In this document: piece by piece, positions 9,324 to 38,236 of the stretch
How the letters are laid out: every line of letters starts with the position of its first letter
Position numbering within the stretch: position 1 is the first letter of the stretch
Virus record (IMG/VR): IMGVR_UViG_3300021962_000117
Span: 1-59,596 of that record
Direction: 5' to 3' (one strand)
DNA length: 59,596 bases
Source of the DNA: a virus
Taxonomy: Duplodnaviria > Caudoviricetes
Program-made: the position numbers and the translations under genes
The notes under the pieces: model-generated
The model's database searches: none
Told to the model about the DNA's origin: nothing
Seen by the model: the letters and a program-made list of their open reading frames with translations, nothing else

Positions 9324-9703
9324 CAATCCCTAATTTCAAATCCCAACCAGATTGGGAAGAGTTTACTAGCATGTTTGATGCACGGTGGCACTGTAAGAAA
9401 GCATTGCTAGATCGTGTGAAGGATGATATGTTTCCTGGCACATCATGGCACGGATTAACATCAGGTCACATGGAAGTCATCAACGACATCGTACAATCTC
9501 TTCTGTATGATGTAGAGTACACATTCAAAGATAAGTACCCAGAATACAAGAATGAGGATGATGAGATGTTCATCCCACGTCGTTCTTTCAAAGAGGATGT
9601 AACAGAAGCACTTAAAGATGCTCTAGGAACTGGTGGACAACAATTGGCAGAATGTCCTCCCTGTGAACCATGCGAACCTTGTGATCTATTCTCCCCAGAA
9701 TAA
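9320..9703 (+). CDS. Hypothetical protein with C-terminal CPPCEPCEPC tail
   Basis: RBS aaggag upstream; 127-aa ORF. Confidence 0.75.
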   Translation: MTIPNFKSQPDWEEFTSMFDARWHCKKALLDRVKDDMFPGTSWHGLTSGHMEVINDIVQSLLYDVEYTFKDKYPEYKNEDDEMFIPRRSFKEDVTEALKDALGTGGQQLAECPPCEPCEPCDLFSPE

Positions 9704-9786
9704 TGTATCAGAGTAAATATAGTGTGGTCCATAAAGATGGATCTGAAACCGAATATAAATGGTCCCAAACTAGAAGAAGGTTTATT

Positions 9787-10026
9787 ATGTCACAGACAAC
9801 AGTAATTTATTCTAATGGTAGCCAAGAATGCGAGCGGATGGCAATGCTCCTTGAATCTCTTGGTGGAGAATTTCATGAGTATCTACTGGGAGTAGATTTT
9901 AGTGATCGTCAATTCCGTGCTGAGTTTGGACCTGAAGCAACGTATCCACAATGTTCTATTGGATCAAAACATATTGGAAATATGAAAGAAACACTTCAAT
10001 TTCTAAAAGAGAAAGGACTTTTCTAA
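9787..10026 (+). CDS. Glutaredoxin-like protein with degenerate active site (SQEC)
   Basis: VIYSNGSQECER...ATYPQC...HIG pattern; RBS-like gaagg before ATG 9787 (track start 9703). Confidence 0.75.
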   Translation: MSQTTVIYSNGSQECERMAMLLESLGGEFHEYLLGVDFSDRQFRAEFGPEATYPQCSIGSKHIGNMKETLQFLKEKGLF

Positions 10027-10046: not shown

Positions 10047-10076
10047 TTGACAACGTATAGATAGTAATGGTATAAT
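10047..10076 (+). promoter_or_regulatory. Sigma70 promoter with extended -10
   Basis: TTGACA(10047-52)-N18-TATAAT(10071-76), preceded by TG-n; predicted TSS ~10081-10083. Confidence 0.85.
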
Positions 10077-10083
10077 AACCATG

Positions 10084-10332
10084 CGTTCATCCTATGACTA
10101 AAGCACTCTTGCTTTTAGCATGGGTTCCACTTTTTTCTGTTTCGACGCCACGACTTATTCAAAATCCATATCCTGTGACTATAAGTTGTGACGCAGCGTG
10201 GGAACTGATGGACATCGTTAAAAACGACGATGTAGTAAATCAAAGAAGAGAAGACCGATTGCTATTGGAACTCCGAAAGGATGTAGTTCAAAGGTGCTAA
10301 AATTAAATAGGACGCAAGTAAGTCGCGGAACG
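10084..10332 (+). ncRNA. Glutamine riboswitch-like aptamer unit 1 (glnA/Downstream-peptide type) with an ORF in its P2 loop
   Basis: CGTTC-A-TCCTAT[ORF]ATAGGA-CGC-AAGTA-AGTCG-C-GGAACG: P1 CGTTC/GAACG, P2 TCCTAT/ATAGGA. Confidence 0.7.
10094..10300 (+). CDS. Small secreted/membrane protein (C-x35-C) nested in riboswitch unit 1
   Basis: MTKALLLLAWVPLFSVS...ISCDAAWELM...VQRC. Confidence 0.75.
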   Translation: MTKALLLLAWVPLFSVSTPRLIQNPYPVTISCDAAWELMDIVKNDDVVNQRREDRLLLELRKDVVQRC

Positions 10333-10335
10333 GAG

Positions 10336-10533
10336 CGTTCATCCCAATGTTTTCAACAATTTTAATTTATGCAACATTGACTTGTTCTCAAGCCAATGCT
10401 CTGATCAATAAAGCCCAAAAGAACGAAAGTATTTCTGAACCTATTAGAAATGAAATAGTTCAAACTATTAAAGAATCTGCTTCAGATTCTTGTTGGGAGT
10501 TGAAAAATAGGGACGCAAACGACTGAAGGAACG
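10336..10533 (+). ncRNA. Glutamine riboswitch-like aptamer unit 2 with an ORF in its P2 loop
   Basis: CGTTC-A-TCCC[ORF]GGGA-CGC-AAA-CGACT-GAA-GGAACG; CGACT (10520-24) is complementary to AGTCG (10321-25). Confidence 0.72.
10347..10526 (+). CDS. Small protein (59 aa, C-x35-C) nested in riboswitch unit 2
   Basis: Hand translation MFSTILIYATLTCSQANALINKAQKNESISEPIRNEIVQTIKESASDSCWELKNRDAND; the stop codon lies inside CGACTGAA. Confidence 0.7.
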   Translation: MFSTILIYATLTCSQANALINKAQKNESISEPIRNEIVQTIKESASDSCWELKNRDAND

Positions 10534-10568
10534 GGAATTAACATTCTCATTTCTTTAGGAGAACAACC

Positions 10569-10736
10569 ATGAACACACTTCAACTGATTAAAGAGCAGCT
10601 TCAAAAAGCAAATGCTCTTCATGATGCTCAGATCTATCACACCACATACCGTGGTTGTGAGTTTAGAGTAGGCAGTCATGAACCAAAGGAGACACACGGT
10701 ACATTTCAGTATCGCGGACATACTTACAGTAAATAA
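10569..10736 (+). CDS. DUF4278-like small protein (two YRG motifs; family related to GS-inactivating factor IF17)
   Basis: MNTLQLIKEQLQKANALHDAQIYHTTYRGCEF...HGTFQYRGHTYSK; RBS aggag; sits downstream of a glutamine riboswitch, as DUF4278 genes typically do. Confidence 0.8.
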   Translation: MNTLQLIKEQLQKANALHDAQIYHTTYRGCEFRVGSHEPKETHGTFQYRGHTYSK

Positions 10737-10737
10737 A

Positions 10738-10762
10738 CAAAAGGACCTACGGGTCCTTTTTT
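10738..10762 (+). terminator. Rho-independent terminator
   Basis: aaaaggacc-tacg-ggtcctttt followed by a T-tract. Confidence 0.9.
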
Positions 10763-10792: not shown

Positions 10793-10836
10793 ATTTGTTA
10801 AGGATTGCTGACAAATCATATACATAGTGATAGAAT
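10793..10836 (+). promoter_or_regulatory. Sigma70-like promoter with an inverted repeat over the -35
   Basis: CTGACA(10808)-N17-TAGAAT(10831) with TG-n; ATTTGTTA-N8-TGACAAAT palindrome at 10793-10816. Confidence 0.5.
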
Positions 10837-10904
10837 TAAAGGGTGAGAAAAGTGTACTGAAAATCGATCTACATTATGGTCAAATAATTATCGTGGAGGT
10901 TATT

Positions 10905-11087
10905 ATGCATAATCTTATTTCACATAATCAGCTAGCTGGCTGGAGACAAAGCGTTACACGATTAGATAAAACATTAGATAGGAGCATCGAAGAATCTGAT
11001 ATTCTTAATGATTATTACAATTGTTTAATTGAATGCGACGATGATCAAACGTCTTGTAAGCGAATTTGCAGGAGGATTTTGCAATAG
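10905..11087 (+). CDS. Small Cys-rich protein (Cx3C-x6-Cx3C)
   Basis: RBS GGAGGT before ATG 10905; DYYNCLIECDDDQTSCKRICRRIL. Confidence 0.8.
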   Translation: MHNLISHNQLAGWRQSVTRLDKTLDRSIEESDILNDYYNCLIECDDDQTSCKRICRRILQ

Positions 11088-38152: not shown

Positions 38153-38236
38153 GGGAGCGTGGCGGAAGTGGTAGACGCACCAGACTTAAAATCTGTTGGG
38201 AGTATTCCCGTGTCGGTTCAAGTCCGACCGTTCCTA
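38153..38236 (+). tRNA. trnL: tRNA-Leu (anticodon TAA)
   Basis: Acceptor GGGAGCG/CGTTCCT-A, D-loop GGAAGTGGTAGA, anticodon arm CAGA-CTTAAAA-TCTG, long variable arm, GTTCAA T-loop; CCA not encoded. Confidence 0.95.

Follow-up and report, generated by a model that had tools for sequence, protein, structure and literature searches.

A probable nested, two-site glutamine riboswitch with genes in its aptamer loops in cyanophages

Glutamine-I (glnA-type, Rfam model RF01739) and glutamine-II (Downstream-peptide, RF01704) riboswitches are the described systems closest to the element treated here. According to the accessible parts of the papers cited, solved structures show a pair between the third junction-strand base and the nucleotide that follows GAACG (Huang 2019), and the glutamine-II RNA gave crystals of a domain-swapped dimer containing a hybrid P1-equivalent helix (Huang 2019; 2020 RNA-dimer review). 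Strand exchange between two glutamine cores is hence sterically possible. Cellular glutamine riboswitches are linked to DUF4278/IF17-like genes and act as ON switches (Klahn 2018). Tandem glutamine aptamers were noted by Weinberg (2010), and 157 glutamine doublets and four triplets were classed as pseudo-cooperative (Sherlock 2022). For cyanophages, two glutamine aptamers in two genomes were listed (McCown 2017). The present analysis concerns a viral sequence of 59,596 nucleotides (nt) (Duplodnaviria; Caudoviricetes; IMG/VR record IMGVR_UViG_3300021962_000117, positions 1 to 59,596), which is called the window throughout. Positions 10084-10534 of the window, the 5'-terminal part of a phage transcript extending from a promoter at 10047-10076 to a terminator-like hairpin at 10739-10760, probably form a nested glutamine riboswitch with two sites.

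The element resembles two aptamer units. GGAACGG and CGTTCATC each have two copies in this region and one copy elsewhere in the 59.6-kb window. An earlier model-made reading of the letters, the original prediction, had noted that the two strands of loop E and of P3 are split between the units. Indeed, CGTTC (10084-88), GGA-CGC-AAGTA-AGTCG (10310-25), GAACG-GAG-CGTTC (10328-40) and GGGA-CGC-AAA-CGACT-GAAG-GAACG-G (10510-34) all lie where it had placed them. AAGTA occurs only in unit 1 and GAAG only in unit 2, each beside one strand of the perfectly complementary pair AGTCG/CGACT, and the RF01739 consensus identifies the two as the loop-E strands flanking P3. In the nested fold, the outer aptamer would be a glutamine-I three-way junction made of P1 (first CGTTC with last GAACG), P2, loop E and P3, the last of these being called helix X. 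The far end of helix X would open into a second three-way junction, formed by X, the hairpin GAACG-GNN(N)-CGTTC and a further helix, P2'. This inner core would be an aptamer in circular permutation, with a loop closing its P1, an open 'P3' and a junction strand that reads ACGC-AAA. Each aptamer would take the 3' strand of its P1 from what seems to be the other unit, and one helix would be common to both.

The split layout was followed in relatives, and 298 split elements, 262 of them unique, were parsed from IMG/VR, phage loci and the window. These element counts are lower bounds and refer to the matches listed. Early statistics use the first 89 unique elements, of which 63 are compact and 26 carry open reading frames (ORFs), and a 33-row alignment holds the compact elements out of 65 class representatives. 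Pair counts rest on the anchored parsing and on this compact alignment. An 89-sequence MAFFT alignment was left out of them; it misplaced the 5' strand in six ORF1-bearing rows, including the window, and shifted two more.

As 256 of the 262 unique elements share the same four P1 strands, most sequences cannot separate nested from side-by-side pairing. The exceptions were collected with a scan of inner P1 in which a change was forced at the first base of the middle GAACG, while the fifth base of the next CGTTC was left free. Seven true elements were present among its 118 matches. Two kinds of middle-strand variant were found, and no other: AAACG with CGTTT in four unique elements and CAACG with CGTTG in two. 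In all six, the change is compensated only in the middle CGTTC, with neither the first CGTTC nor the last GAACG altered. Variants at the second base of the middle GAACG were also sought, with no true element among 66 matches. At the outer linchpin, junction strand 1 is CGC with a 3' G in 241 unique elements and CGG with a 3' C in 21. None of these 21 variants has a change in junction strand 2 (CGC) or in the G that follows the middle GAACG. The linchpin flip therefore ties junction strand 1 to the 3'-most strand. Since the covariation of inner P1 and of the outer linchpin leaves only that pairing, the first CGTTC would, by elimination, pair with the last GAACG.

In the 33-row alignment scored as nested, the inner-P1 pair is G-C in 31 rows and C-G in two, and the outer linchpin is C-G in 31 and G-C in two, with no unpaired cell. 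Among the P1 and linchpin pairs as a whole, the one unpaired cell lies at the invariant inner linchpin. Of all cells, 95.5% are paired, and the paired fraction and covariation score were reached by none of 500 shuffles. Scored as side-by-side, the same variants give nine unpaired cells (2+2+3+2) and no compensation. The covariation thus supports the nested over the side-by-side fold, and with it two ideas of the original prediction, a linker that folds on itself and one large aptamer enclosing it.

Other helices and folding predictions are consistent with this arrangement. P2 covaries across ORF1, being TCCTAT/ATAGGA in the window, TCTTA/TAAGA in relative L001 and TCTTATG/CATAAGA in L002, and P2' covaries in the pair table of the 89 elements. 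In these elements each P2 pairs with its own partner strand, in contrast to P2-type cross-pairing between units. RNAalifold, applied to the 33 compact elements, returned outer P1, P2, the inner hairpin and P2'. Nearest-neighbour energies place the nested fold below the side-by-side fold in 89 of 89 elements, with means of -26.3 and -18.8 kcal/mol, respectively, in the 63 compact ones. The minimum-free-energy (MFE) structure of 10084-10536 contains outer P1 (5/5 base pairs), helix X (4/5), inner P1 (5/5) and P2' (4/4), and the last two are also complete in the MFE of the full transcript. As a separate candidate, a local circularly permuted fold at 10310-10345, pairing the unit 1 3' strand with the unit 2 5' strand, was rejected for poor cross-pairing (positions 3-5 canonical in 49, 52 and 24 of 89).

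The original prediction had also named covariation of AGTCG/CGACT among homologues as a check, and the helix does covary, in the shuffles of the 89 elements and in those of the 33 rows. In the 89 unique elements, 461 of 534 cells of helix X are canonical, against a shuffle mean of 405.5, and none of 2000 shuffles reached this value. Counted from the loop-E side, position 1 is G-C in 65 elements, A-U in 16 and G.U in eight; position 2 is G-C in all 89; position 3 is A.C in 63, U-A in 17, A-U in four, A.A in four and U.U in one; position 4 is C-G in 85 and A-U in four; and position 6 is G-C in 72, U-A in 12 and C.A in five. Position 5 is again G-C in 89 of 89, and a single A-U case, L594 (AGUCA/UGACU), was seen in the 33-row alignment. 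The helix falls into sequence classes: A (AGUCG/CGACU), to which the window belongs; B (GGACGG/CCGCCC); C (GGAAGG/CCUUCC), a perfect 6-bp helix; and D, in which AGCCGACU pairs with an identical near-palindromic 8-mer through six pairs and two symmetric A.C mismatches. This fourth, very abundant class was traced from two loose-end variants on metagenome contigs aligned to the window. In 13 class D elements with AGUUGACU, one A.C becomes A-U and one G-C becomes G.U. The A.C mismatches of helix X may be protonated pairs or adopt a conserved non-canonical geometry. To judge from these pairing statistics, helix X is real, though position 3 is mostly mismatched and class D imperfect. An alternative register for class B, in which GGCGG overlapping GGAACG pairs with CCGCC, was discarded on inspection; it is unavailable in classes A, C and D and broken in several class B variants.

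Three other explanations were weighed. Two ordinary side-by-side aptamers, with the first CGTTC paired to the first GAACG, the second to the second, and an AGTCG/CGACT pseudoknot helix bridging them, are very unlikely. The identical P1 strands (256/262) permit both pairings, RF01739 scores unit 1 of S-MbCM7 alone at 30.4 bits and unit 2 alone at 31-33 bits in four relatives, and the literature, in the accessible part of Sherlock (2022), treats glutamine doublets as separate and pseudo-cooperative. This fold would nevertheless impose C.A or C.C and G.G or U.G at the P1 ends of six unique elements and G.G plus C.C at both linchpins of 21. Its predicted energy is the higher one in 89 of 89 elements, and it is absent from the RNAalifold output. 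On geometric grounds, junction strand 1 would lie in the groove of its own P1, yet the next five bases would form loop E at the far end of X. The original prediction had offered two interlocked aptamers or two mutually exclusive folds with a nested one among them; its nested option is supported, and the interlocked side-by-side option is contradicted by every natural variant found, each of which breaks side-by-side pairs.

The use of both folds is rather unlikely too, if somewhat less so. A side-by-side or unit-1-only form would arise first, and strand exchange to the nested fold, or its block by glutamine, would be the switch. With ORF-bearing loops, the last GAACG is transcribed up to 200-450 nt later than unit 1, so that the first CGTTC would initially pair only with the first GAACG. 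The identity of the four strands in 256 of 262 elements fits such an exchange, and the AAACG/CGTTT variants still permit a U.G pair in one side-by-side helix. The visible selection on the sequence, however, favours nested pairs only. The inner hairpin would form once the second CGTTC is made, and it is present in the MFEs of 49 of 63 compact and 25 of 26 ORF-bearing elements. In addition, a hairpin before the Shine-Dalgarno (SD) sequence already competes for the outer 3' strand, as a conventional platform would. That the complementarity is incidental, owing to coding constraint on the C-terminus of ORF2 or to protein-binding repeats without RNA structure, is scarcely credible. CGACT-GA of the window does lie inside ORF2, and ORF2 relatives usually end in ...WDAND, but the strings and their complementarity persist in 94 of 262 elements that lack any loop ORF. 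Helix X switches sequence class yet stays complementary, and the RF01739 structural model scores compact relatives above its threshold.

Several observations weigh against the nested riboswitch. Direct covariation of outer P1 was not found, the helix being invariant in 262 of 262 elements, and a scan for variants of the last GAACG gave no true element among 37 matches. The covariation events come from few lineages and are not many independent events. P2 is missing (0/6) from both MFEs of the window, and in that of the full transcript outer P1, P2 and X are all absent, the competing hairpin being formed instead. Helix X is usually mismatched at position 3 (canonical in only 21 of 89), and its most abundant class, D, is imperfect, a self-paired near-palindrome with two A.C mismatches. 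G 10333 and C 10516 would form the inner linchpin, provided that a loop of 3-4 nt lets them pair. No Rfam glutamine model matches the window, even at E<=10, and the window does not reach the 35-bit gathering threshold of RF01739; this miss is attributable to the ORFs in both P2 loops, which amount to inserts of 200 nt and 160 nt. Five of seven compact relatives also score under that threshold (31.2-33.4 bits). Finally, by simple anti-SD reasoning the element would be an OFF switch, the reverse of the ON behaviour of the cellular relatives, because an aptamer holding its 3' strand would free the pyrimidine tract, which pairs weakly with the SD.

Both cores keep the features expected of a ligand site. 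Their glutamine-contacting positions, as named in the accessible part of Huang (2019), are conserved, and it is on this ground that two glutamine sites are likely. Among the 262 unique elements, CGUUC and GAACG of the inner core are invariant except for the covarying first pair, junction strand 2 is CGC in 261, and the first base of the inner loop is G in 260. An inner P1 loop of 3 nt is present in 149 elements and one of 4 nt in 102, and the loop-E 3' strand is GAAG in 221, AAAG in 40 and CAAG in one. AAGTA was fixed in the search patterns, and its invariance among relatives is thus not independent evidence. The element has two complete cores and one predicted expression platform, and the common helix X would be a route to cooperativity between the two sites. 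Relative L306 (oriented, 4724 onward) has TGC instead of CGC as junction strand 2, together with a CAACG/CGTTG inner P1; its inner site may be degenerating.

The loops of the two P2 helices can hold whole genes. Complete translated genes are present in the aptamer loops of 168 of the 262 elements. Loops longer than 100 nt are found at P2 in 75 elements and at P2' in 147, at both in 54 and at neither in 94, and ORF-bearing P2 loops measure 140-245 nt. For closer inspection, 34 loop ORFs (13 in P2, 21 in P2') were taken from the first 89 unique elements. Their ATG lies 3-5 nt after CGTTCA, in or beside the P2 5' strand, without a Shine-Dalgarno sequence, and 16 of the 21 P2' ORFs share the position of their stop codon, which falls at the end of helix X, 13 nt beyond where junction strand 2 begins. 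In the window, the ORF1 start codon begins within the P2 5' strand, which takes in its first two bases, and the last codons and the stop codon (10524-26) of ORF2 are encoded by the aptamer 3' half. This half sets the C-terminus of most ORF2 relatives (...WDAND). The loop ORFs are coding. The third codon position dominates the differences in all six loop-ORF family subsets; window-type ORF1 differs among three relatives 13, 6 and 38 times at the three codon positions, with 36 synonymous versus 17 non-synonymous codon changes, and the ORF2 55-aa set differs 239, 100 and 286 times. Several families are represented, with lengths of 50-68 aa, a short hydrophobic N-terminus and two cysteines. ORF2 matches phrog_504 (E=1.3e-14), while no Pfam or PHROG match was obtained for ORF1. 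A common origin of ORF1 and ORF2 was considered and dropped, their likeness in BLASTP (E=0.008 over 34 residues) being too weak to call them paralogues. Because the start codons of the loop genes lie in or beside the P2 strands, sensor folding and loop-gene translation should be mutually exclusive.

Downstream of the aptamers, an ORF with at least one YRG motif follows in 232 of the 235 unique elements whose downstream ORF could be parsed; it has two motifs in 229 and a length of about 40-55 aa. ORF3 of the window, the presumed regulated gene, matches phrog_545 (E=2.2e-28). Against Pfam PF14105 (DUF4278) it scores 18.0 bits (E=0.0039), under the cut-off of 25.3 bits, yet this family is its top Pfam match, as it is in five of five relatives tested, at 16.8-25.0 bits and always under the cut-off. 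On these scores, the DUF4278 likeness of ORF3 is a resemblance, not family membership. Two relatives depart from the usual context: a lysine-rich 33-aa ORF follows the riboswitch in L112 (12858-12956), in place of the usual YRG peptide, and a different YRG protein does so in L120 (1577-1714).

The predicted hairpin before the SD is likely to be the expression platform. When 10525-10583 is folded alone, this hairpin has -10.0 kcal/mol and ends one base before the SD, and its 7/7 base pairs also form in the MFE of the full transcript. Of 216 unique tails, 180 have an equivalent helix as their predicted MFE, and in 158 of these it stops 1 nt short of the SD. The hairpin claims the 3' strand of outer P1 and loop E, which is for this reason the likely switching strand. 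If the element behaves like its homologues in cyanobacteria, ORF3 would be turned on by glutamine. When the first 11 nt of the tail are removed, at least three of four SD bases are paired in the MFE of 131 of 216 tails, and the window pairing amounts to -3.0 kcal/mol. In the tails of L193, L224, L259, L292 and L483, an extra conserved hairpin lies between the aptamer 3' end and the pyrimidine tract, and the distance from GAAG to the ATG is 66-76 nt versus 39-47 nt otherwise.

The features of the window element are listed in Table 1. The transcript start predicted from the promoter, at about 10083-85, falls on the first aptamer strand, and the spacing from promoter to CGTTCA is the same in relatives. 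The first G of the GAG loop (10333) is the putative inner linchpin, and the CGTTC at 10336-40 is followed by A. P2' of the window consists of four pairs, an A.A mismatch and two further pairs.

Table 1. Features of the window element and its transcription unit
Feature	Position	Strand	Details
Sigma-70-type promoter	10047-10076	+	TTGACA, 18-nt spacer, TG-extended TATAAT; 12/12 hexamer matches
Outer P1, 5' strand CGTTC	10084-10088	+	Partner 10529-10533; followed by A
P2, 5' strand TCCTAT	10090-10095	+	Partner 10307-10312 across ORF1; six consecutive pairs
ORF1	10094-10300	+	68 aa, two Cys; inside P2 loop
P2, 3' strand ATAGGA	10307-10312	+	
Junction strand 1, CGC	10313-10315	+	Third base is the outer linchpin C; putative partner G 10534
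Loop E, 5' strand AAGTA	10316-10320	+	Matches RF01739 consensus
Helix X (outer P3), 5' strand AGTCG	10321-10325	+	Partner 10520-10524; followed by C G
Inner P1 hairpin	10328-10340	+	GAACG (10328-32), loop GAG (10333-35), CGTTC (10336-40)
P2', 5' strand TCCC	10342-10345	+	Partner 10510-10513 across ORF2; one base before ORF2 start codon
ORF2	10347-10526	+	59 aa, phrog_504; inside P2' loop
P2' 3' strand, junction strand 2 and spacer	10510-10519	+	GGGA (10510-13), CGC (10514-16), AAA
Helix X, 3' strand CGACT	10520-10524	+	
Loop E, 3' strand GAAG	10525-10528	+	
Outer P1, 3' strand and linchpin	10529-10534	+	GAACG (10529-33), outer linchpin G 10534
Predicted competing hairpin	10525-10556	+	GAAGGAA and GGGAAT with ATTCTC and TTTCTTT
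Shine-Dalgarno sequence AGGAG	10557-10561	+	After pyrimidine tract
ORF3	10569-10736	+	55-aa YRG-repeat protein; presumed regulated gene
Intrinsic-terminator-like hairpin	10739-10760	+	Followed by T run; end of transcription unit

The window is a piece of a T4-like cyanomyophage, with thyX and phoH just downstream of the element. All DNA relatives of the region found by BLAST are Synechococcus or Prochlorococcus phages. In a distant BLAST, 415 phage records match part of the region, mostly over 10310-10736, and the four records read closely (L001-L004) all have the split layout. In two of them, S-MbCM7 (L003) and Syn1 (L004), the first unit is compact, with P2 loops of 4 nt and about 20 nt, respectively. 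The first pattern scan of IMG/VR gave 109 true elements among the 120 matches listed, the other 11 being chance matches. Class D elements came from two pattern scans with at least 120 matches each. In cellular genome contigs, no true element was present among the 120 matches listed; all were chance matches, and these loci were excluded from the element set. The anchored parser dropped elements cut by contig ends or with fewer than three consecutive P2 pairs. The split layout recurs far beyond chance.

Metatranscriptome contigs from three libraries contain conserved segments of the element. For instance, record 26 of contig set X7 matches 10335-10715 with a single difference. Contig cover of this kind gives neither transcript ends nor levels, and DNA carry-over is possible. 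Apparent joints in the contig alignment stem from relatives with compact loops and are present in DNA runs as well. In library X19, the summed contig word-depth is very high over 10311-10357 and 10499-10545; it sums many relatives and is no expression measure, and it suggests that the element is abundant in this RNA library.

Elsewhere in the window, the ORF at 9703-10026, upstream of the promoter, has a weak glutaredoxin match under the cut-off (E=0.042). A second promoter-like site (10808-10836, 10/12 matches, TG-extended) follows the terminator directly and reaches into the beginning of an 86-aa ORF (10827-11087) with no family match. The sole Rfam match at gathering threshold in the window is an 84-nt tRNA with a long variable arm (38153-38236, 51.7 bits).

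The element would add a new architecture to the glutamine riboswitches and is common in cyanophages. Two of its features, the enclosure of one aptamer by another through exchange of P1 strands and the presence of translated genes in aptamer loops, are without report in the literature examined. Full-text literature searches brought up no glutamine riboswitch described as nested, strand-swapped or ORF-bearing, and an earlier account in further sources is possible. What has been called a 'tandem' riboswitch could then be re-read as an aptamer within an aptamer with swapped strands, instead of beads on a string. The nested fold would give cooperative glutamine sensing a concrete basis that is testable by mutation. 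A wider picture is tentative and, for the time being, rather doubtful. It combines a two-site cooperative sensor, P2 loops as landing sites for small genes, competition between ribosomes and ligand, a gene toggle set by the ligand and an under-counting of cyanophage riboswitches. With loop genes starting in P2 strands and ORF2 ending in helix X, the same RNA would be contested by ribosomes and ligand. If this picture is true, the fold would be locked at high glutamine, the loop genes would fall silent and the IF17-like gene downstream would be switched, so that gene sets are toggled on one short mRNA. Glutamine riboswitches would also be common in cyanophages and under-counted, since standard models miss the nested form. 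With 415 BLAST-matched records and at least 262 unique elements, the use of riboswitches by cyanophages may far exceed the survey of McCown (2017). Nitrogen status matters for phage yield in infections of marine Synechococcus and Prochlorococcus, and the loop genes raise the possibility that translation and metabolite sensing are coupled during such infections.

Compared with glutamine-I riboswitches, the outer aptamer would have the same order of parts, CGUUC-A-P2-ACG(C/G)-AAGUA-P3-GAAG-GAACG, with the capping long-range pair, and the gene context is likewise DUF4278-like. In the nested reading of the window, P1 lies at 10084-88/10529-33, and P2 after CGUUC-A, a P3 flanked by loop E and the linchpin C10315/G10534 are all present. 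Two of the seven compact relatives exceed the 35-bit threshold of RF01739 (45.7 and 40.9 bits) as a single aptamer with a P3 insert of 52-53 nt. In Infernal, L112, L011 and L235 align to the model as one aptamer (45.7, 40.9 and 31.8 bits; P3 insert of 42-53 nt). In contrast to glutamine-I, P3 of the nested element would be closed by a second complete aptamer core instead of a hairpin. Its linchpin is mostly C-G, as in glutamine-II, whereas glutamine-I has G-C.

With glutamine-II, the element shares the ACGCA junction strand, GGAACGG and the C-G linchpin, as well as the start at the transcript 5' end and a small YRG peptide downstream. RF01704 scores the relatives at 18.2-28.9 bits, against a threshold of 33, and has no match in the window. 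Glutamine-II is an H-type pseudoknot with a local hairpin, whereas the nested element has no local 3' hairpin. The nested element would be a natural intramolecular counterpart of the domain-swapped glutamine-II crystal dimer. Unlike in that dimer, the exchange would take place within one molecule and be fixed by selection, not be an artefact of crystallization.

Genes of homing endonucleases sit in the loops of group I and group II introns. There, as here, a peripheral loop of a functional RNA tolerates a whole translated gene. In the present element, by contrast, the host RNA would be a metabolite sensor whose P2 strands hold the start codons, which makes a coupling of sensing and translation possible. 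The tandem glycine riboswitch likewise has two homologous amino-acid aptamers, one platform and contacts between the aptamers. As described in the accessible parts of the sources, its aptamers lie side by side and touch through tertiary contacts, without P1 strand exchange or a common Watson-Crick helix. Tandem glutamine doublets also have two aptamer cores in one leader. In the accessible descriptions through which they are known, they are separate riboswitches under pseudo-cooperative control, and they may include the nested form. In the element described here, unlike in such doublets, the two cores would be interleaved, with a common helix and one apparent expression platform.

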